Of a stretch of DNA of 64,000 bases, positions 8,275 through 51,714 are shown in pieces. The notes under the pieces are model-generated. The model searched no databases. It worked only from the letters and a program-made list of their open reading frames with translations, and was not told the origin of the DNA. Where the stretch lies: sequence record PZ496581.1; one strand, written 5' to 3'. The first letter of the stretch is position 1. Each line of letters opens with the position of its first letter. The DNA comes from a phage. The translations under genes were made by a program, and so were the position numbers.

Positions 8275-9843
8275 ATGACTACTATCAAAACTAAAGCTCA
8301 GCTCGTAGACAAATGGAAAGAACTGCTGGAAGGTGAAGGCCTGCCGGAAATCGCTAATAGCAAGCAGGCTATTATCGCTAAAATCTTCGAAAACCAGGAA
8401 AAAGATTTCGAAGTATCCCCTGAATATAAAGACGAGAAAATCGCTCAGGCATTTGGTTCTTTCTTGACCGAAGCTGAAATTGGTGGTGACCACGGTTATA
8501 ATGCTCAGAACATCGCAGCAGGTCAAACCTCTGGTGCAGTAACCCAGATTGGGCCAGCAGTTATGGGTATGGTTCGTCGTGCTATTCCTAATCTGATCGC
8601 TTTTGATATTTGTGGTGTTCAGCCTATGAACAGCCCTACCGGTCAGGTATTTGCTCTCCGTGCAGTATATGGTAAAGACCCTATCGCTGCTGGCGCTAAA
8701 GAAGCTTTCCATCCGATGTATGCTCCAGACGCGATGTTCTCTGGTCAGGGTGCTGCTAAGAAATTCCCAGCTCTGGCTGCTAGCACACAAACCACAGTAG
8801 GTGATATCTATACTCACTTCTTCCAGGAAACTGGTACTGTATATCTGCAAGCTTCTGTTCAAGTAACAATCGATGCTAGTGCGACTGATGCTGCTAAATT
8901 AGATGCCGAAGTTAAGAAACAAATGGAAGCTGGTGCACTGGTAGAAATCGCTGAAGGTATGGCTACTTCTATCGCTGAACTCCAGGAAGGTTTCAACGGT
9001 TCTACCGACAACCCGTGGAACGAAATGGGCTTCCGTATCGATAAACAAGTTATCGAAGCTAAATCTCGTCAGCTGAAAGCAGCTTACTCCATCGAATTGG
9101 CACAAGACCTCCGTGCAGTACACGGTATGGATGCTGATGCTGAACTGAGCGGTATTCTGGCTACAGAAATTATGCTAGAAATCAACCGTGAAGTTGTTGA
9201 TTGGATTAACTACTCAGCACAGGTCGGTAAATCTGGTATGACCCTGACTCCGGGTTCTAAAGCTGGTGTATTTGACTTCCAGGATCCGATTGATATCCGT
9301 GGTGCTCGTTGGGCCGGTGAAAGCTTTAAATCTCTGTTGTTCCAGATTGATAAAGAAGCAGTTGAAATTGCTCGTCAAACCGGTCGTGGTGAAGGTAACT
9401 TCATTATCGCTTCCCGTAACGTAGTTAACGTACTGGCTTCAGTTGATACTGGTATTTCTTACGCTGCACAGGGTCTGGCTTCTGGTTTTAATACCGACAC
9501 TACTAAGTCTGTATTTGCCGGTGTACTTGGTGGTAAATACCGCGTATACATCGACCAGTATGCTAAACAGGATTACTTCACCGTTGGTTACAAAGGCGCT
9601 AACGAAATGGACGCAGGTATTTACTATGCTCCTTACGTTGCACTTACCCCACTGCGTGGTTCCGATCCTAAGAACTTCCAGCCGGTAATGGGCTTTAAAA
9701 CTCGTTACGGTATCGGTGTTAACCCGTTTGCTGAAAGTTCCCTGCAGGCTCCAGGTGCTCGCATCCAGTCCGGTATGCCGTCTATCCTGAACAGCCTTGG
9801 TAAGAACGCTTACTTTAGACGCGTCTACGTTAAAGGAATTTAA
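8275..9843 (+). CDS. 23: Major capsid protein gp23
   Basis: 522 aa ORF; N-terminus and length match T4 gp23 (521 aa). Confidence 0.97.
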   Translation: MTTIKTKAQLVDKWKELLEGEGLPEIANSKQAIIAKIFENQEKDFEVSPEYKDEKIAQAFGSFLTEAEIGGDHGYNAQNIAAGQTSGAVTQIGPAVMGMVRRAIPNLIAFDICGVQPMNSPTGQVFALRAVYGKDPIAAGAKEAFHPMYAPDAMFSGQGAAKKFPALAASTQTTVGDIYTHFFQETGTVYLQASVQVTIDASATDAAKLDAEVKKQMEAGALVEIAEGMATSIAELQEGFNGSTDNPWNEMGFRIDKQVIEAKSRQLKAAYSIELAQDLRAVHGMDADAELSGILATEIMLEINREVVDWINYSAQVGKSGMTLTPGSKAGVFDFQDPIDIRGARWAGESFKSLLFQIDKEAVEIARQTGRGEGNFIIASRNVVNVLASVDTGISYAAQGLASGFNTDTTKSVFAGVLGGKYRVYIDQYAKQDYFTVGYKGANEMDAGIYYAPYVALTPLRGSDPKNFQPVMGFKTRYGIGVNPFAESSLQAPGARIQSGMPSILNSLGKNAYFRRVYVKGI

Positions 9844-9900: not shown

Positions 9901-10560
9901 CTATAGCTTAAAACAATCATCGCGTTCATTAATCCAATTTCTTATAGTTTTTGCGGATACGTTAAAGAATTCGGCAGCGTAATCGTAGTGGTTAAATTCA
10001 TGACCTTTAATAGAAATATCCACAAATACAAATTTCTTACCTTTATTAGAATTCTTTCTAATTTTTGCTTTATGCTCTTCTGATAGTTTTCTACCTTTAA
10101 GATGAGAATCTCTATTTTTATAAAACTTTTTATTTGCTATAGATTTGTTTTCTCGATGTTCTTTAGATTCTTTAGAACCTAATTTCTTTTTAGATATTTT
10201 GGCCCGAACTTCTTCAGTCATACCAGCTTTTGTCTTTTCGGATAACATCTCACGATACCCAGGTTCCTGTAAAGCTACTATAACAGGATTACCCTTGCCG
10301 CCTAAGGCTGCATTATAAGTATCTGTTCTCATGACAAAAGCCTCGTCAACTAGTTCGGCTTCCTTAGCATACATCTCTTCAGATGTTTCGAAATTGAAAA
10401 GGATTTCCTTTTTAAAATTCTCTAAGCCGTATTTCTTTATGGATTTTACTATGTTAACCCCGGAACCCATATAAGAATCGTTAACATCTGTAGTGGCATG
10501 GGCTCCAACATAAATCTTGTTATTAATGAGATTGGTTATTTTGTAAATTAAATAATTCAT
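9901..10560 (-). CDS. GIY-YIG homing endonuclease, seg-type (segD-like position)
   Basis: 219 aa ORF with N-terminal GIY-YIG motifs (YLIYKITN..KIYVGAH.., NAALGGKGN) and basic C-terminal region; sits between genes 23 and 24 as segD does in T4. Confidence 0.85.
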   Translation of the reverse strand: MNYLIYKITNLINNKIYVGAHATTDVNDSYMGSGVNIVKSIKKYGLENFKKEILFNFETSEEMYAKEAELVDEAFVMRTDTYNAALGGKGNPVIVALQEPGYREMLSEKTKAGMTEEVRAKISKKKLGSKESKEHRENKSIANKKFYKNRDSHLKGRKLSEEHKAKIRKNSNKGKKFVFVDISIKGHEFNHYDYAAEFFNVSAKTIRNWINERDDCFKL

Positions 10561-10830: not shown

Positions 10831-10854
10831 TTTTAATCTCCTCATGTTTTGATA

Positions 10855-10890
10855 GGTCTATATTAACACGACGCTTTTTGTGTGTAAACC
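10855..10890 (-). promoter_or_regulatory. Early promoter cassette (GTTTAC-N17-TAATAT)
   Basis: Minus-strand GTTTAC with 17 nt spacer to TAATAT, then conserved leader ..AGACCTATCAAAACATGAGGAG. Confidence 0.65.
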
Positions 10891-10895
10891 ACTTT

Positions 10896-10903
10896 TATAA
10901 ATA
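10896..10903 (+). promoter_or_regulatory. Late promoter TATAAATA upstream of gene 24
   Basis: Exact TATAAATA about 30 nt upstream of the gene 24 ATG, followed by SD AAGGAAA. Confidence 0.7.
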
Positions 10904-10933
10904 AAATTATATTCTCAATAAGGAAAAAATGCA

Positions 10934-12214: not shown

Positions 12215-12249
12215 TAAAAAAAAAAGGGACCTTACGGTCCCTTTTTTTC
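12215..12249. terminator. Bidirectional rho-independent terminator
   Basis: A-run, then gggacc-ttac-ggtccc hairpin, then T7 run; lies between convergent gene 24 (+) and rnlB (-). Confidence 0.85.
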
Positions 12250-13817: not shown

Positions 13818-13892
13818 TCCCGTATTATTTGGTTTGTGCCATTATATACATCAATCTCAAGTTGTGTTTTGTATGCTTTAAAAACGAAGAAA

Positions 13893-13906
13893 GGGGCCGA
13901 AGCCCC
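13893..13906 (-). terminator. UUCG-tetraloop terminator after hoc
   Basis: Minus strand reads GGGGC-UUCG-GCCCC followed by a U-rich tract, 7 nt after the hoc stop. Confidence 0.7.
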
Positions 13907-13912
13907 TTACGA

Positions 13913-15326
13913 TTATGGATATGTATAGATGATACCAGTTTCCAAAGCAGTTTTATGGATGATGTATCCATTACGTGATTCTTGAACATCAACTTCCGGA
14001 TAGTCTTTCATCATCTTCTGAAGAGTGTAACGATGCAGGTAGTATTTACTATCTGGATCTTCAGTTTTCCAATCTTTACCTTCTTCAGTCATTTTTTGGA
14101 TTTCATCCATAACCCACCATCCGCACCAGATGTAAGCTGAAGTACGATGTGGAAGAGGATGAACATAAGGTAGTTCACCTTCTGGTTCAATTGGAGTCCG
14201 TTCAGCAATAACAACTTCAGCGGTTGAACTAATTGTCTTTGAAGTATAATTATCTTTAGTTAATACTGCTTCAACTTTAATTGTATGAGTACCCGCTGAG
14301 GAGGTATCAATACTATAAGTATTAGTAGAATTACTTTCTGCTACGTTGTCTTTCTTCCAAGAATACACAATATTAGTATCACCAGGAGCACCAGTAACAG
14401 ATGCTGTTAAAGTTGCAGTTCCACCAACAGTAGTATTAACTGATGGCGGAGATAAAGAAATGGTGGCACTATTAAATGTCGCATTATTAGTTACTACTGT
14501 TGCTTCTGCTGAAATTTCTTTTGTAACATAATTTGTTGCAGAAACAGATGCGGTGCATTTAAGAGTTTTACTTCCGACTTCGGTCGGAGTGAATTTATAC
14601 GTAGCAGAAGTTGCATCCGGAATATTACTGTCATCCATTGACCATTGGAATGTTATAGTAGCACCTGAAGGTGCACTAGAGACATTTGCAGTTAAAGTAA
14701 TAGGAACACCAAAGACTGTAGTCGGAGACTCGGGTGTAATTTTTTAGCGTCGAAGAATTAGCCTTTTTATTTACAGTCAAAGAAACCGCTGATGATTCTA
14801 CTGTTTTATCAACGTAATCAGTTGCAGTCACTGTGACAGAGCAAGTTATAGACTTAGTTCCTTCAGTTGTTGGTGTATTCAAAGGTTGATTGCTTTTGAC
14901 CGTCAACAGCGACCCCGTCAACTTTCCATGTATAATCAATAGCAGCACCAGTAGGTTGATTGCTTACATTAGCAGTGAATGTTGTTGCTGTTCCAATTTC
15001 TACTGCCGCAGGAGAAGCCGGAGTAACAGTGATAGTGGAATTATTTTCTTTCTTATTAACAGTGATAGTTGTTGATGCTTCAGCTATTTCCGGATCTCCT
15101 GCGGAAAGTGTATTAGTTGCAACCACTTTAATTTTTTTGTTCCTGCTGGAGAAGCAAGAGTATAATCCATTGTAGCAGCCGTAGAGCCCTGTGTTATATC
15201 ATCTACAGTCCAGACGTATGTAATAGTACCGTCTGGAGTTTGACCACTGGGAGTAGCAGTAAACTGCTGAGTCTGATCTATAACTCCAGTAGGTGTTTTA
15301 GGAGTTATATCAACTGTAAAAGCCAT
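13913..15326 (-). pseudogene. hoc: hoc (outer capsid decoration protein) interrupted by three frameshifts; apparent four Ig-like domains
   Basis: Four consecutive minus-strand ORF pieces (15084-15326, 14863-15126, 14676-14948, 13913-14638) each align to T4 Hoc; C-terminal capsid-binding domain ..PEGELPYVHPLPHR..IIYTYP is near-identical to T4; frame breaks at T7 run 15132-15138, at about 14878-14886 and at T6 run 14740-14745. Confidence 0.85.
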
Positions 15327-15335
15327 AACTTATCC

Positions 15336-16004
15336 TTATTTTAATGTTACGAAAGAAGAATTACGAGTTTCACGAATTAGAACTGATCCATCGCGATTAA
15401 TATAATAAATTAAGCTAAATAATGTTTGGTGAGCAGAAGCATGCACAAAACTAGTTGGGCGAGATTTCCAATCTGGGGTTTCGGCTATCCATTGATAAAT
15501 CCACCAAGGAACAGTAACATATCCTGGGCCTTTGCCTAATTTAATGAGTGTAGGACTAAAATTTTCAGGCAGAACAAATTTTACTTCTTTATTTACCTCT
15601 GGTTCAGGCTCTTTTTCAGATTCAACAACCTGAGTAATTGCTTCTTCGAATTTATCATGGTCGAATTCTTTTTCTTGTTCGACAACTTCTAATACTTCAA
15701 CTTGTTCTGTTGGAGAATCAAACAACAGAATAGCTTCTTCTTTAACTTCTTCGTTGGTGAAATTAACACCGTCCACATCATCTGCGGCAGTAATTAAATC
15801 GGTGATAGATAATCCATCGGTTTCAGGTAATGGTTCATCAGCCAGTGCGTTAAGAGCTTCTTCGATATCAATAACAATATTATCAAATGATTTTGTTTTC
15901 TTAACACTAATGCCAAATTGTCCCGCATATTCAAACAGTTTAGCTTTGGCTTCCTTTTTATCAGAAAGAGCACGTAACTCTTCAATATAGTCTTTATCGA
16001 TCAT
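15336..16004 (-). CDS. inh: Inh, inhibitor of prohead protease gp21
   Basis: 222 aa acidic ORF immediately upstream of hoc on the same strand; T4 Inh is about 226 aa; SD GAGGA. Confidence 0.8.
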   Translation of the reverse strand: MIDKDYIEELRALSDKKEAKAKLFEYAGQFGISVKKTKSFDNIVIDIEEALNALADEPLPETDGLSITDLITAADDVDGVNFTNEEVKEEAILLFDSPTEQVEVLEVVEQEKEFDHDKFEEAITQVVESEKEPEPEVNKEVKFVLPENFSPTLIKLGKGPGYVTVPWWIYQWIAETPDWKSRPTSFVHASAHQTLFSLIYYINRDGSVLIRETRNSSFVTLK

Positions 16005-16017
16005 GGTATTTCCTCAT

Positions 16018-16025
16018 TATAAATA
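16018..16025 (+). promoter_or_regulatory. Late promoter TATAAATA upstream of the seg-type endonuclease gene and uvsW
   Basis: Exact TATAAATA about 28 nt upstream of the likely HEG start. Confidence 0.6.
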
Positions 16026-16053
16026 TAACTATATTTATTACATGGAAAAGAGT

Positions 16054-16785
16054 ATGTATCACTTTGTTTATGAGACCGTAAATTTAATCAATGGTAAAAA
16101 GTACATTGGCAAACATTCTACAGAAAATTTAAATGATTCGTATCTAGGGTCAGGTGTTGCCTTAAATCGCGCTATCAAAAAATACGGAGAAGAATCATTT
16201 AAACGTTCAATAATTAAACAATTTGAAACTTCCGCTGAAGCTTTAGAATACGAAGCTCAGTTAGTAACAGAGGATTTGGTCAAATCTAACGAGTATTATA
16301 ATATGCGCCAAGGCGGTGAAGGTGGAAGGTATAAGTACACCGAAGCTGATAAGATTAAAATGTCTAATAGTGCTAAAGAACGAATAAAGAGGCTTGGTCA
16401 TAATCTTTTAGGAAAACACAGATCGGAAGAAACAAAAAGAAAACTATCTGAAACAAATAAACGTCGATACTCTGAAGACCCAACATGCCACGGGCGGTAT
16501 GGTACAGGAAAGCCAAAGATTGATAAAATTAAAGGTCCTAAAAATCCTACAACTCTAAATAAAATTTGTGTTAACAAAGGTAAAGAAAACAGATTTATAT
16601 CAGCCGAGGACCCGATGCCTGAAGGATTTGTAAAAGGAATGGTCCAACTTAATAGAAAATCTAGAAAGGGTTGTGAAGTAAAACCTACGACCACCGGCAG
16701 AATATGGGTAAATAACGGGGCTATAAATAAATTAGTAAATCCGTTATCCATCCCAGATGGATATGTTAAAGGCCGTTTAAGGTAA
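16054..16785 (+). CDS. GIY-YIG homing endonuclease, seg-type (segE-like position)
   Basis: GIY-YIG motifs (MYHFVYETVN..KKYIGKHS.., NMRQGGEGG) plus basic NUMOD-like C-terminal region; listed ORF starts at 16003 but that lies upstream of the late promoter, so ATG 16054 (or 16042) is more likely; paralogous to the 9901-10560 gene. Confidence 0.85.
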   Translation: MYHFVYETVNLINGKKYIGKHSTENLNDSYLGSGVALNRAIKKYGEESFKRSIIKQFETSAEALEYEAQLVTEDLVKSNEYYNMRQGGEGGRYKYTEADKIKMSNSAKERIKRLGHNLLGKHRSEETKRKLSETNKRRYSEDPTCHGRYGTGKPKIDKIKGPKNPTTLNKICVNKGKENRFISAEDPMPEGFVKGMVQLNRKSRKGCEVKPTTTGRIWVNNGAINKLVNPLSIPDGYVKGRLR

Positions 16786-32636: not shown

Positions 32637-32838
32637 TTATAATTTCAACATCAGCCCAATGTCCGTATCCAGGTATACGGTCTTCGATAGATAAATTTCT
32701 GTCATTTTTAGGCATTTTAATTGACGTAACGTATGGTTCTAAACGGTTTTCCGCGTAATATGGAAAAACGTCGGTTACACGATAAGTAACTTCAATCATT
32801 TCCGTACCAAACAATTTCTGGATTAATTTATTCAACAT
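32620..32838 (-). CDS. Hypothetical protein
   Basis: 72 aa ORF in the operon-like 30.x array, overlapping its neighbours. Confidence 0.5.
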   Translation of the reverse strand: MLNKLIQKLFGTEMIEVTYRVTDVFPYYAENRLEPYVTSIKMPKNDRNLSIEDRIPGYGHWADVEIISVKDV

Positions 32839-43344: not shown

Positions 43345-44523
43345 TTAGAAATATTTTTTGTATGAATTGATTACATTTTGGTCTACATCATTATCAATTT
43401 GTGCGACAAGATAAGAACTGATTTCAACTTCCTGAGGAGCTGCTTGAACTAAATCAGAGTTCAGATATTCACGAATCCAAGGATACGGATGCTTGGTCGG
43501 AGCATCAGTGATTGGGCATGGCAAACCACACTGTTTCATACGAGACACAGTCAAGTAATCAACAAAAGCACACATACTCTGTGTATTGATACCTGGGCAT
43601 GTACCGTCTTTAAAGAGGTGTGCAGCCCATTCCTTCTCTTGACTATTTACTTCCATAAAAATGTCAACTGCTTCTTGTTCACATTCTTTAGCAATTTGAA
43701 CCCACTCATCGCCATCAGTACCAGATTGAAGTTGACGGATGATGTACTGAGTACCCTTGAGGTGGAGTTGTTCGTCACGAGCAATGAACTTCATAATCTT
43801 TGCATTACCTTCCATAATTTCCATATTTTTATGGAAGTTGAAAGTACATGCAAATGATACGTAAAAACGAATAGCTTCTAAGGCGTTGATAACATGCAAA
43901 CAGAGGTAAAGAGATTTCATTAGCTCACGCTTCCAATATGTCTCATGCTCAATAGCATCTTCAATAACGTCTTCGTCTGCATTAATTTCTTTTTGGTATT
44001 CGATATCAGCTTTAGCATTTTCCCAATAACGAGTTTTAACCAAGACATCATCGTAATAGCGACCAATAGATTCAGCGCGTTTCATGATTGCTTCGTCTAA
44101 TACAATCTCATCAAATACCTTAGATGGGTCCGTATAAAGATTTCGCATAATATGAGTATACGAACGAGAGTGAATAGTTTCACTGAATGTCCATGTTGCA
44201 ACCCACGTATCTAATGAAGGGTCAGAAATCAGTGCCATAAGTACCGCAGATGGGGCCCTGCCTTGGATAGAATCTAATAATGATTGATACTTAAGATTGT
44301 TTGTAAAGATGTCCTGTTGGAACTGAGGAAGCTTATTGAACTGCGCAGAGTCCAACATCAAGTTTACCTCTTCGGGACGCCAGAAAAATGACAAGGATTT
44401 TTCTATAAGTTCTTCAAAAACTTTATGACGCTGAATATCATACCGTGCGAGGCCAAGACAAGAACCAAAGAACATCGGTTCATTCAAAACATCGACTTGT
44501 TGTGTGTTAAAAACTGTACTCAT
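43345..44523 (-). CDS. nrdB: Ribonucleotide reductase small subunit NrdB (intronless)
   Basis: 392 aa contiguous ORF with the diiron/tyrosyl-radical family fold; no intron interruption. Confidence 0.93.
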   Translation of the reverse strand: MSTVFNTQQVDVLNEPMFFGSCLGLARYDIQRHKVFEELIEKSLSFFWRPEEVNLMLDSAQFNKLPQFQQDIFTNNLKYQSLLDSIQGRAPSAVLMALISDPSLDTWVATWTFSETIHSRSYTHIMRNLYTDPSKVFDEIVLDEAIMKRAESIGRYYDDVLVKTRYWENAKADIEYQKEINADEDVIEDAIEHETYWKRELMKSLYLCLHVINALEAIRFYVSFACTFNFHKNMEIMEGNAKIMKFIARDEQLHLKGTQYIIRQLQSGTDGDEWVQIAKECEQEAVDIFMEVNSQEKEWAAHLFKDGTCPGINTQSMCAFVDYLTVSRMKQCGLPCPITDAPTKHPYPWIREYLNSDLVQAAPQEVEISSYLVAQIDNDVDQNVINSYKKYF

Positions 44524-47176: not shown

Positions 47177-47488
47177 TTATACCGCCATTTTAGCTTTGAT
47201 AGTTGGATGAGATTCGTAATTTTTAAGAACGAAATCAGAATGTGTCATCGTTCCAGTAACCCAGTCCATTTGGATTTTTGTAGGCCAATTCTCAAAATTA
47301 CTAGGCCAATTAATTTCAAGAGAACATAATTCTTTAGGTTCACGACGAAGAACTTCTTTGCATTGTTCTACATGATTGCTGTAGATATGCGTGTTGCCGC
47401 CTGAGAACACTAAATCACCTGGGATAAGGTTACACATCTTCGCTACAATATGCGTCAAGGCAGCGTACGAGGCAATGTTGAACGGCAG
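47177..47488 (-). CDS. td: Thymidylate synthase, exon 2
   Basis: Encodes LPFNIASYAALTHIVAKMCNLIPGDL.FSGGNTHIY..; 312 nt as in T4 td exon 2; begins immediately after the intron terminal G. Confidence 0.9.
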   Translation of the reverse strand: MPFNIASYAALTHIVAKMCNLIPGDLVFSGGNTHIYSNHVEQCKEVLRREPKELCSLEINWPSNFENWPTKIQMDWVTGTMTHSDFVLKNYESHPTIKAKMAV

Positions 47489-48504
47489 CATTATGTTCAG
47501 ATAAGGTCGTTAATCTTATCCCGGAATTATATCCAGCTGCATGTCACCATGCAGAGCAGACTATATCTCCAACTTGTTAAAGCAAGTTGTCTATCGTTTC
47601 GAGTCACTTGACCCTACTCCCTAAAGGGATAGTCGTTAGGCATTTATGTAGAACCAATTCCACTTATCAGATTTTACACGGTAAGTAACTAATCCTGATG
47701 AAATTTCAAAATGTCTAGCCGCATCGGCTGCACATTCAAAAATAATCCCATCGCATGAAATCTTTTTGATGTTAGCTGGCTTTTTGCCTTTCATCTTTTC
47801 AGATAGTTTAGTTTTAGTTTTTTCTGAATGTTTGTGATTAAAGAACGGGTTATTTTCACCTGAACGTTTTCGGCACTTTCCACAAGTATCGGCCGAAGAT
47901 GGTATGCGAACACCGCATTTACAAAACTTGTGGTTTTCTGGATTCCATCGGCCATTTTTACTTCCGTGTTTACCATAAAGAGCTTTCCGACCATCAGGAC
48001 CAAGCTTAAGCATCTTAGCTTTAACAGTTTCAGCTCGTTTCTTAGCAATTTCTTCTTTTAATGGATGATTTGAAAGCACATCGCCAAAAGACGCATCAGC
48101 AATATTATATCCATTAATTTTAGAATTTAGCTCTTTAATCCAAAAATTTTCTCGTTCAATAATCAAATCTTTCTCATATGGAATTTCTTCCAGTACAGAG
48201 CATTCAAAAACATTACCATGTTTATTAAAAGACCTTTGAAATTTTATAGAAGAGTGAACACCGTTTTCAAGGTCTTTAAAATGTCTCTTCCATCTTTTCT
48301 CAAAATCTTTAGCACTTCCAACATACACTTTACCGTTTAAAGTGTTTTTAATCTGATAAATTCCGCTTTTCATAAACACCTCTTTTTATATAGAAGTATT
48401 TATTAAAGGGTAGTCCTACAATTTAGCACGGGATTGTCTACTAGAGAGGTCCCCCGTTTAGATAGATTACAAGTATAAGTCACCTTATACCTAGGCCTAA
48501 ATTA
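47489..48504 (-). mobile_element. Group I self-splicing intron in td, carrying the I-TevI homing endonuclease gene
   Basis: 1016 nt between td exons; 5' end (minus strand) TAATTTAGGCCTAGGTATAAGGTGACTTATACTTGTAATCTATCTAAACGGGGGACCTCTCTAGTAGACAATCCCGTGCTAAAT closely matches the remembered T4 td intron; exon 1 ends ..CTTAGGT and intron ends ..ATG as in T4. Confidence 0.92.
47636..48373 (-). CDS. I-TevI GIY-YIG intron homing endonuclease
   Basis: 245 aa from ATG 48373 (MKSGIYQIKNTLN.KVYVGSAKDFEKRWKRHFKDLE..) near-identical to T4 I-TevI including zinc finger and C-terminal DNA-binding domain; the listed ORF start at 48379 is a GTG. Confidence 0.95.
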   Translation of the reverse strand: MKSGIYQIKNTLNGKVYVGSAKDFEKRWKRHFKDLENGVHSSIKFQRSFNKHGNVFECSVLEEIPYEKDLIIERENFWIKELNSKINGYNIADASFGDVLSNHPLKEEIAKKRAETVKAKMLKLGPDGRKALYGKHGSKNGRWNPENHKFCKCGVRIPSSADTCGKCRKRSGENNPFFNHKHSEKTKTKLSEKMKGKKPANIKKISCDGIIFECAADAARHFEISSGLVTYRVKSDKWNWFYINA

Positions 48505-49878
<1,374 letters not shown>

Positions 49879-50696: not shown

Positions 50697-51614
50697 TTAT
50701 AGACCAGCTAACAGGTCATCGAGGTCGCCATCATCAGAGGATGAGGTAGAGCTCATGAAGTCATCTTCAGTTTTTGCAGAACTAAAGGCTTCCATGTCTT
50801 TATCAAAATCGTCAAGGTCAGAAGCAACTTTATCTGCAACAGAAGCTGCTGCGGCTGCTGCACCACCAAGAGCGGCAGTACCAAGAGCGGCAGTACCAAG
50901 AACCTTAGCGAAAGATTCATTTAATTTTTCAAAGGATTTGAACTGGTCTTTAGCCGTCAAAGTAGTAAGGTCTACCATCTGGTCATATAGTTCTTTCTGG
51001 AATGCTTCGTCATTAATACGAGGAATTTCAGATTGACCCAAGAATTTAGATTCGTCATAGTTGCTAAAACCTGAAACCTGCTTAGCTTTCAGAACGAAGT
51101 TAGCACCTTCAAACGGACAAGTAACATCAACTGGAGTTTCACCCATTTCGGTATCAACAGCAATCATTGCATTGATTTTGTCCCAAATCTTTTTACCGAA
51201 ACGATATTTAAATACTTTACCTTCGTTATCTGGAGCTTGAGGGTCTTTAACAACCAGAATATTAGCCCAATAAGAAGTTTTACGTTTCAGTTGAGAATAT
51301 TCATTTTTGTTGGTATTGTACAGGTCATTTTTACTAATGTACTGACATACAGGACAAGAGTCATAATCACCATGTGTAGAAGAGCAATTTTCAATATACC
51401 ATTTACCATTTTTCTTGAAACCGTGGTTAACAAGAATTGCAAATGGTAGTGCATCATCAGTTTTTGCTGGCAAGAAACGAATTACCGCTTGACCATTACC
51501 GGATGCATCTAGCTTCAGCTTCCATTCGCCTTTATCTTCTGAAGAGAAACCTTTGTTACCATTCAGTTTAGCCATTTGAGCAGCGAGGTCAGCAGTAGAT
51601 TTACGTTTAAACAT
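50697..51614 (-). CDS. 32: Single-stranded DNA-binding protein gp32
   Basis: 305 aa ORF near-identical to T4 gp32 ([35 protein letters not shown]..; zinc site C..H..C..C); acidic C-terminus. Confidence 0.96.
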
Positions 51615-51652: not shown

Positions 51653-51690
51653 CAGTTGGTTGCTACGACACTAGTTGGTTGCTACGACAC
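51653..51690 (-). repeat. 19 bp tandem direct repeat in the gene 32 leader
   Basis: cagttggttgctacgacac / tagttggttgctacgacac, two adjacent copies immediately 5' of the AU-rich operator. Confidence 0.8.
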
Positions 51691-51714
51691 TTATACCTCG
51701 TAGCTGGTATGATT

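Follow-up and report, generated by a model that had tools for sequence, protein, structure and literature searches.

How should a hoc gene that appears in four pieces be read: as a dead gene, as a gene that is recoded or switched, or as an intact gene with errors in its sequence? The question arises in a 64,000-nt stretch of phage DNA (PZ496581.1; hereafter the window), which covers the terL-to-holin part of the genome of a Mosigvirus, an RB69-like relative of T4. A sequence-only reading of this DNA had proposed that four consecutive minus-strand ORF pieces encode a single Hoc, with four Ig-like repeats and the conserved C-terminal domain, of about 470 aa if repaired. It had offered genuine pseudogenisation, slippage-prone phase variation and locus-specific error as possible causes. 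Our analysis favors the first of these. With a probability of roughly 0.78, judged from sequence comparisons, we consider hoc in the window to be a real, inherited and recently inactivated pseudogene that was hit more than once through replication slippage and that would leave the virions without Hoc.

The window phage belongs to a Mosigvirus clade that contains NRG-P0074 (PQ480333) and a20 (α20, OQ067374), and the window is colinear with the genomes of both. Its hoc locus is flanked by inh (16004-15336, upstream of hoc) and gene 24.3, and the order inh - hoc - 24.3 matches that in RB69. The locus comprises the following features:

13913..15326, minus strand: putative hoc pseudogene, entire, an RB69-type allele running from the ATG at 15326 to the TAA at 13915-13913
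15333..15337, minus strand: Shine-Dalgarno-like AAGGA, 6 nt 5' of the hoc ATG and overlapping the inh stop TAA (15338-15336)
15084..15326, minus strand: first ORF piece, 80 aa, with 64 native Hoc residues followed by 16 out-of-frame residues and a stop
15132..15138, minus strand: lesion 1, a coding-strand A7 (T7 on the plus strand), one base fewer than A8
14881..15131, minus strand: second native-frame segment, covering the last part of Ig domain 1 and the bulk of Ig domain 2
14875..14880, minus strand: lesion 2, loss of 2 nt (AT or TA) from ATATA, which turns GAATATACACC into GAATACACC at about 14880-14872
14746..14874, minus strand: third native-frame segment, the end of Ig domain 2 and a linker, between lesions 2 and 3
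14740..14745, minus strand: lesion 3, a coding-strand A6, one base more than the in-frame A5
13913..14739, minus strand: fourth native-frame segment, with Ig domains 3 and 4 ahead of the C-terminal domain
13916..14203, minus strand: capsid-binding domain without damage, with the ESRNG loop and the Tyr/His/Trp contact residues present
13891..13908, minus strand: intrinsic-terminator-like hairpin AAGGGGCTTCGGCCCCTT followed by a T-rich tail, directly 3' of the hoc stop

Both ends of the gene are in good order. The initiation signals of hoc are undamaged, and the AAGGA is the same in a20, NRG-P0074 and RB69; the hairpin at 13891-13908 carries a terminator annotation in NRG-P0074. Between these ends lies an allele with four Ig-like domains and a C-terminal capsid-binding domain. 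In a six-frame translation of 15340-13900 (minus strand), the Hoc sequence passes through frames 2, 1, 2 and 0, and a stop codon follows soon after every frame switch, within 16 to 22 codons. We located the lesions by alignment to RB69 hoc (intact, 1416 nt, 471 aa), a20 and NRG-P0074. The A8 run that is expected at lesion 1 encodes Thr-Lys-Lys-Ile in frame. The alignment agrees with the earlier calls of a T7 run at 15132-15138 that is one base short (A7 versus A8 in RB69) and of a T6 run at 14740-14745 with one base extra (A6 versus A5 in RB69). A third break had been placed at an AC dinucleotide site at about 14878-14886; the break is there and is 2 nt short, as one of the two options then given had it, but the repeat is AT/TA, not AC.

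The pieces themselves are well preserved. The native part of the 80-aa piece covers most of Ig domain 1, and the same product is annotated in a20 (a20_18; P0001). The second segment (14881-15131) is 95.5% identical to RB69 Hoc residues 64-152, and the third (14746-14874) is 97.8% identical to residues 152-196. The earliest possible start in the fourth segment is the ATG at 14638, which opens a 241-aa ORF; this C-terminal fragment is 61% identical to T4 Hoc. Look-ups by exact sequence returned no record for either the 80-aa or the 241-aa product. As a separate observation, the start region of hoc (15326-15240, ~30 codons, MAFTVDITPKTPTGVIDQTQQFTATPSGQT) is T4 Hoc-like and unlike the Hoc of RB69 or NRG-P0074. 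The ~40 nucleotide differences from RB69 and NRG-P0074 are concentrated in 15321-15231, and the mosaic junction sits within Ig domain 1.

Repair of all three lesions yields a 1416-nt ORF of 471 aa that is free of further stops, in line with the single protein of about 470 aa proposed earlier. It is identical to RB69 Hoc at 447/471 positions (95%). It matches the PDB sequence of T4 Hoc (5vf3_Z, E = 1.7e-147), and Pfam matches to Ig_3, PKD, I-set and PKD_3 fall at residues 100-174, 200-261 and 290-360. Residues 376-471 are near-identical to T4 Hoc 281-376, including ESRNG, PYVHPLPHR and WCGWW, and the repaired protein retains every capsid-contact residue (these residues and the ESRNG loop are listed in PMC10385173). 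The locus therefore has the Ig-like N-terminal string, the C-terminal domain and the position between inh and 24.3 that mark a hoc gene. What it does not have is a single ORF in which the Ig domains are joined to the capsid-binding domain, as three breaks, each with a stop after it, separate them. We read the locus as a hoc pseudogene and not as a functional member of the family. Compensating frameshifts were considered and rejected: the -1 and -2 shifts of the window, like the -1 and +1 shifts of a20, sum to frame, but stops in the shifted stretches leave no rescue.

The sequence-only reading had drawn attention to an extra Ig-like domain. Relative to T4 there is one: T4 Hoc has 376 aa and three Ig-like domains, and BLASTP of the repaired Hoc against it aligns in two registers ~95 aa apart, which indicates four repeats versus three in T4. 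RB69 Hoc, however, has 471 aa and four Ig-like domains, and the four-Ig RB69-type allele is found in about 30 other records. The four-Ig architecture is thus normal for the RB69 group, and is neither new nor special to the window phage. Hoc proteins span one to ten Ig domains (PMC10385173), and phage CCU7 (PV806175; L013 275-1978) has an intact 567-aa, five-Ig Hoc. We also noted that Hoc domain number changes by whole repeats; that public assemblies contain a 133-aa 'mini-Hoc' (P0013), in which the N-terminal ~40 residues are joined straight to the capsid-binding domain; and that the hoc match in MK373775 (vB_EcoM_WFK) is only 462 nt long.

Comparison with the hoc alleles of related phages, a check proposed with the sequence-only reading, separates the three lesions. 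At site 1, where run lengths were read from the alignment spans of an 81-nt query, the run is A8 in 26 of 28 records, A7 in a20 and A9 in NRG-P0074. Sites 2 and 3 were scored from the alignment spans of a 221-nt query in records with the RB69-type allele. The AT deletion of lesion 2 occurs only in the window, and AT is kept in 30/30 other records, a20 included. The A6 of lesion 3 is common only to the window and a20, with a wild-type span in the other 29-30 records.

The hoc gene of a20 is the closest to that of the window. It is the same RB69-type four-Ig allele with the same A8-to-A7 and A5-to-A6 changes, and the central 1.1 kb is identical: from 15269 to 14173 the AT deletion is the sole difference, with 0 substitutions in 1,096 nt. 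This absence of substitutions is best explained if the hoc segment is identical by recent descent. The two genes differ in that a20 retains ATATA, and so has two lesions versus three in the window, and in SNPs, of which 5 are close to the 5' end and 4 lie in the 3' part; hoc is annotated as three pieces in a20. The a20 genome also lacks the seg-like endonuclease genes found in the window at 9901-10560 and 16003-16785. Over the first 25 kb, no relative is closer overall than NRG-P0074, with 99.1% identity at 100% coverage. In that phage, too, the lesion-1 A run is frameshifted, and hoc is annotated as two pieces, but the slip is in the opposite direction (A9, +1) and is the single lesion, sites 2 and 3 being wild-type. 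Phage 6phi8, isolated from the commercial cocktail 'Sextaphag', falls in one clade with NRG-P0074 and a20 (PMC13600099). A scan of IMG/VR for the site-1 context with a variable-length gap returned 0 matches.

These patterns bear on the possibility that the gene is intact in the phage, and that the three indels are base-calling or consensus errors at hoc only. We consider such a locus-specific error unlikely, even though two of the three sites are homopolymers, where sequencing errors concentrate, and the AT deletion is present in the window alone. The A7 and A6 recur in a20, which is a different phage in a separate deposit, with ~1-5% divergence from the window outside the hoc segment. It was assembled with Trimmomatic and SPAdes, which points to short-read data, although the platform is unstated in the relevant passage (PMC10869271). 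An intact hoc with A8 is found in phage a15, which comes from the a20 study, so that this pipeline does not systematically shorten A8. For the lesion found in the window alone, a 2-nt loss in ATATA is atypical of homopolymer errors.

The earlier observation that no other gene in the window is frame-broken also held, in two comparisons. When 78 RB69 proteins were compared with the window by tblastn, only hoc was spread over several frames (td is interrupted by its intron). Of the a20 ORFs of 70 aa or more, 95 have matches in the window, all of them single-frame, and the lone flagged a20 ORF is the holin, which is cut by the window end. In well-aligned sequence, the other non-triplet indels relative to a20 are all intergenic. 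The remaining indels lie in divergent, poorly aligned stretches (about 10844-10918, 32740-32761, nrdB 43957-43973 and the tail-fibre genes), where they mostly cancel out and the RB69 or a20 products are still single-frame. Among the 33 homopolymers of at least 6 common to the window and RB69, the length differences outside hoc are all intergenic, and the lesion-1 run is the sole coding homopolymer of at least 7 in the window among RB69-mapped genes. If three coding indels fell at random over about 58 kb of coding sequence, the chance of all three landing in one 1.4-kb gene would be ~(1.4/58)^2, or about 6e-4.

Even if the lesions are real, full-length Hoc could in principle be made through ribosomal frameshifting or transcriptional slippage, or the gene could toggle readily between ON and OFF. 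We regard both as very improbable for the window allele. Read in the ATG frame, the A7 (15138-15132) is A_AAA_AAA, a perfect -1 slippery heptamer, and a -1 shift there restores the native frame. However, the 82 nt 3' of the A7 fold no better than shuffled sequences (-9.6 kcal/mol versus a mean of -11.3, z = +0.63), site 2 has no slippery sequence, and three separate corrections would be required (-1, then +1 or -2, then +1), each ahead of the stop that follows its break. In addition, the in-frame A8 and single hoc ORF in 26/28 records indicate that the out-of-frame state is not conserved. We rejected programmed frameshifting on account of the missing downstream structure, the unconserved arrangement and the three lesions to correct. 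A live switch would draw on the variation of the run in the closest relatives (A7, A8 or A9) and on the finding that, in T2, T4 and T6, hypermutable homopolymers of at least 6 serve as contingency loci whose changes are reversible (bioRxiv 10.1101/2025.10.21.683753). Against this, conservation of the A8 does not extend to other hoc alleles (A5 in T4), and the need for three reversions means that the window allele is locked off. The phase variation suggested earlier has partial support at site 1 only, and does not describe the window allele as a whole.

That an internal start at the ATG at 14638 yields a 241-aa capsid-decorating protein seems to us extremely doubtful: the ORF is undamaged and spans part of Ig domain 3, Ig domain 4 and the capsid-binding domain, and short Hoc proteins occur naturally (P0013, without Ig domains, and one- and two-Ig forms described in PMC10385173), but no Shine-Dalgarno-like sequence was found in the 20 nt upstream of this ATG, no translated upstream ORF ends near it for coupled re-initiation, and the ATG is the conserved internal Met of a QWSMDD motif in intact alleles.

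We return to the inherited dead gene, which the comparisons support best: two lesions are common to a20, the third is unique to the window, and the other genes are unaffected. All three sites are short repeats (A8, ATATA and A5), a signature that suggests replication slippage. In the sequence of events that we infer, the shortening of A8 to A7, within the codons for Thr-Lys-Lys-Ile in Ig domain 1, and the lengthening of A5 to A6 about 390 nt downstream would both have been present already in the common ancestor of the window and a20 hoc segments. Because the AT deletion is found only in the window and the other two lesions are common to a20, the AT unit was probably lost from ATATA later, in a gene that was already dead. 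The otherwise clean repaired ORF, with its contact residues kept, fits a young pseudogene. Ribosomes that start at the intact ATG and ribosome-binding site would stop after 80 codons, and the capsid-binding domain, which lies downstream of all three breaks, would not be joined to the translated product. The virions are therefore predicted, by analogy with a T4 mutant, to lack Hoc fibres: HAP1, a spontaneous hoc nonsense mutant of T4 with a stop at 44% of the length, has a capsid without Hoc and is viable (PMC10580926), and Hoc is dispensable in the laboratory (PMC10385173). HAP1 (T4ΔHoc) resembles the window phage in having a premature stop upstream of the capsid-binding domain, and differs from it in being a laboratory mutant with a single nonsense substitution (C496T) and no frameshifts. 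A counterpoint is that hoc is annotated as one gene in nearly all isolates in a spread sample of 653 records; with hoc intact in nearly all field isolates, one would not quite expect a lineage without Hoc to persist and diversify.

We also considered whether an altered Hoc-binding site on gp23 had made Hoc useless, and rejected this, as the same form of gp23 occurs in phages with intact hoc. Codons 324-326 of gene 23 (8275-9843) encode LTP in the window versus NIV in RB69, and adjoin the Hoc contact region Gly326-Arg344. Many phages in which hoc is intact, among them the O157 typing phages, CCU7 and PECP20, carry a gp23 segment that is 98.7-99.3% identical to that of the window. LTP is the common form in Mosigvirus and related phages, and RB69 is the exception.

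Broken hoc genes are not confined to this clade. In T2 (NC_054931; L008 808-1664), hoc carries three frame-breaking lesions, -11, then -1, then -2 (AT), and the -1 falls at the A run of a Gly-Val-Lys-Arg-Ile-Lys strand. In T6 (NC_054907; L009 704-1835) there is one lesion, a +1 at that same strand. T2 and T6 thus show a decay similar to that in the window, of a dispensable decoration gene at a lysine-codon A tract. Unlike the window allele, theirs are three-Ig T4-type alleles from Tequatrovirus with lesions in Ig domain 2, not 1, and are of independent origin. In RefSeq, each of the two genes is annotated as two 'Hoc-like head decoration' proteins, and the A tract struck in both is around T4 hoc position 490. 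Classical work reportedly described T2 heads without Hoc. When the 80-aa piece was used as a protein query, most of the matches were short N-terminal fragments of Hoc, two of them on long contigs with hoc split in two. The hoc of one, a Logan contig, has a -1 in an A4 run; the piece on the other, an ENA metagenome contig, ends in GVKKLSV*, which fits a -1 in the poly-A of a Gly-Val-Lys-Lys-Ile-Lys strand. Broken hoc is often struck at the lysine-rich Gly-x-Lys-Lys-Ile-Lys strand. Loss of hoc is recurrent yet uncommon, and is an ordinary kind of event. Our literature searches found no paper that describes hoc frameshifts or pseudogenes.

We tentatively raise the possibility, which we think unlikely, that the A8 tract in the Gly-Thr-Lys-Lys-Ile-Lys strand of RB69-type hoc, like its equivalents in other hoc alleles, is a contingency locus that turns the immunogenic Hoc fibres, with their adhesion to mucus and cells, on and off within populations. 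Contingency loci of T-even phages, such as the A9 of T2 agt and the A6 of T4 rIIA, frequently change by one base in either direction, and the gene is thereby silenced or restored (Gomez, Barrick and Waters 2025 preprint). The hoc tract resembles them in having -1 and +1 variants in sister genomes: it is a repeat of at least 6 inside an ORF (A8 in intact relatives, A7 in the window) whose length varies by ±1 between genomes (A7 in the window and a20, A9 in NRG-P0074, A8 in 26 records). On such a view, the clade made up of the window phage, α20 and NRG-P0074 may have been caught in OFF states (A7, A7 and A9), the large-scale propagation of therapeutic stocks may favor or tolerate an OFF state, and further decay of the window allele may have followed. 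The likeness is one between sequences, and the window gene differs from these loci in its two extra lesions, which leave no one-step switch back. Lysine and threonine codon usage accounts well enough for the A8 run. The evidence supports mutability of the tract, not adaptive value, and we put adaptive switching forward as a hypothesis.

For annotation, the four ORF pieces are best recorded as one hoc pseudogene and not as separate proteins. Of the surface proteins on T4-type virions, Hoc is the most immunogenic, and a role for it in adhesion to mucus and to the surfaces of bacteria has been proposed. A phage without Hoc may differ in antibody recognition, gut retention and aggregation. Such differences may matter for therapy: α20, with the same A7/A6-broken allele, is the wild-type parent of the engineered α20.4 in the clinical candidate cocktail SNIPR001, and the clade member 6phi8 came from a commercial therapeutic cocktail. 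The recurrent breaks of hoc at lysine-codon A tracts (in the clade, T2, T6 and two contigs) also offer a natural test case for phage contingency loci. Overall, the finding helps annotation and is of mild interest for therapy and for contingency loci, and it does not describe a new kind of feature.

Several other features of the window were noted along the way. Between gene 24 and rnlB (12216-12248), A10 and T7 runs flank a GGGACC...GGTCCC hairpin that resembles a bidirectional terminator. These runs differ in relatives (A9 in a20, T6 in RB69), an intergenic slippage of the same kind as that proposed to have broken hoc. Two GIY-YIG (Seg-like) homing-endonuclease ORFs are present: one on the minus strand between genes 23 and 24 (9901-10560), with a weak Pfam SegE_GIY-YIG match below the cut-off, and one on the plus strand between inh and uvsW (16003-16785), with a match above the curated cut-off. 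Both are missing at these positions in a20 and RB69, and the ORF at 16003-16785 is present in NRG-P0074. The thymidylate synthase gene td (47180-49053, minus strand) consists of exons 49053-48505 and 47488-47180, ~1 kb apart; the gap holds a 247-aa ORF (47636-48379) and resembles the usual T-even td intron with its endonuclease. The nrdB gene is uninterrupted in the window, whereas that of a20 has a ~1.1 kb endonuclease insertion. Two duplications relative to a20 lie in and near gene 32: a 15-nt in-frame duplication within the gene (50887-50901) and a tandem one of 19 nt (GGTTGCTACGACACTAGTT) between genes 32 and 59 (51658-51695). With 90.8% identity, gp32 is the replication protein most divergent from its RB69 counterpart.
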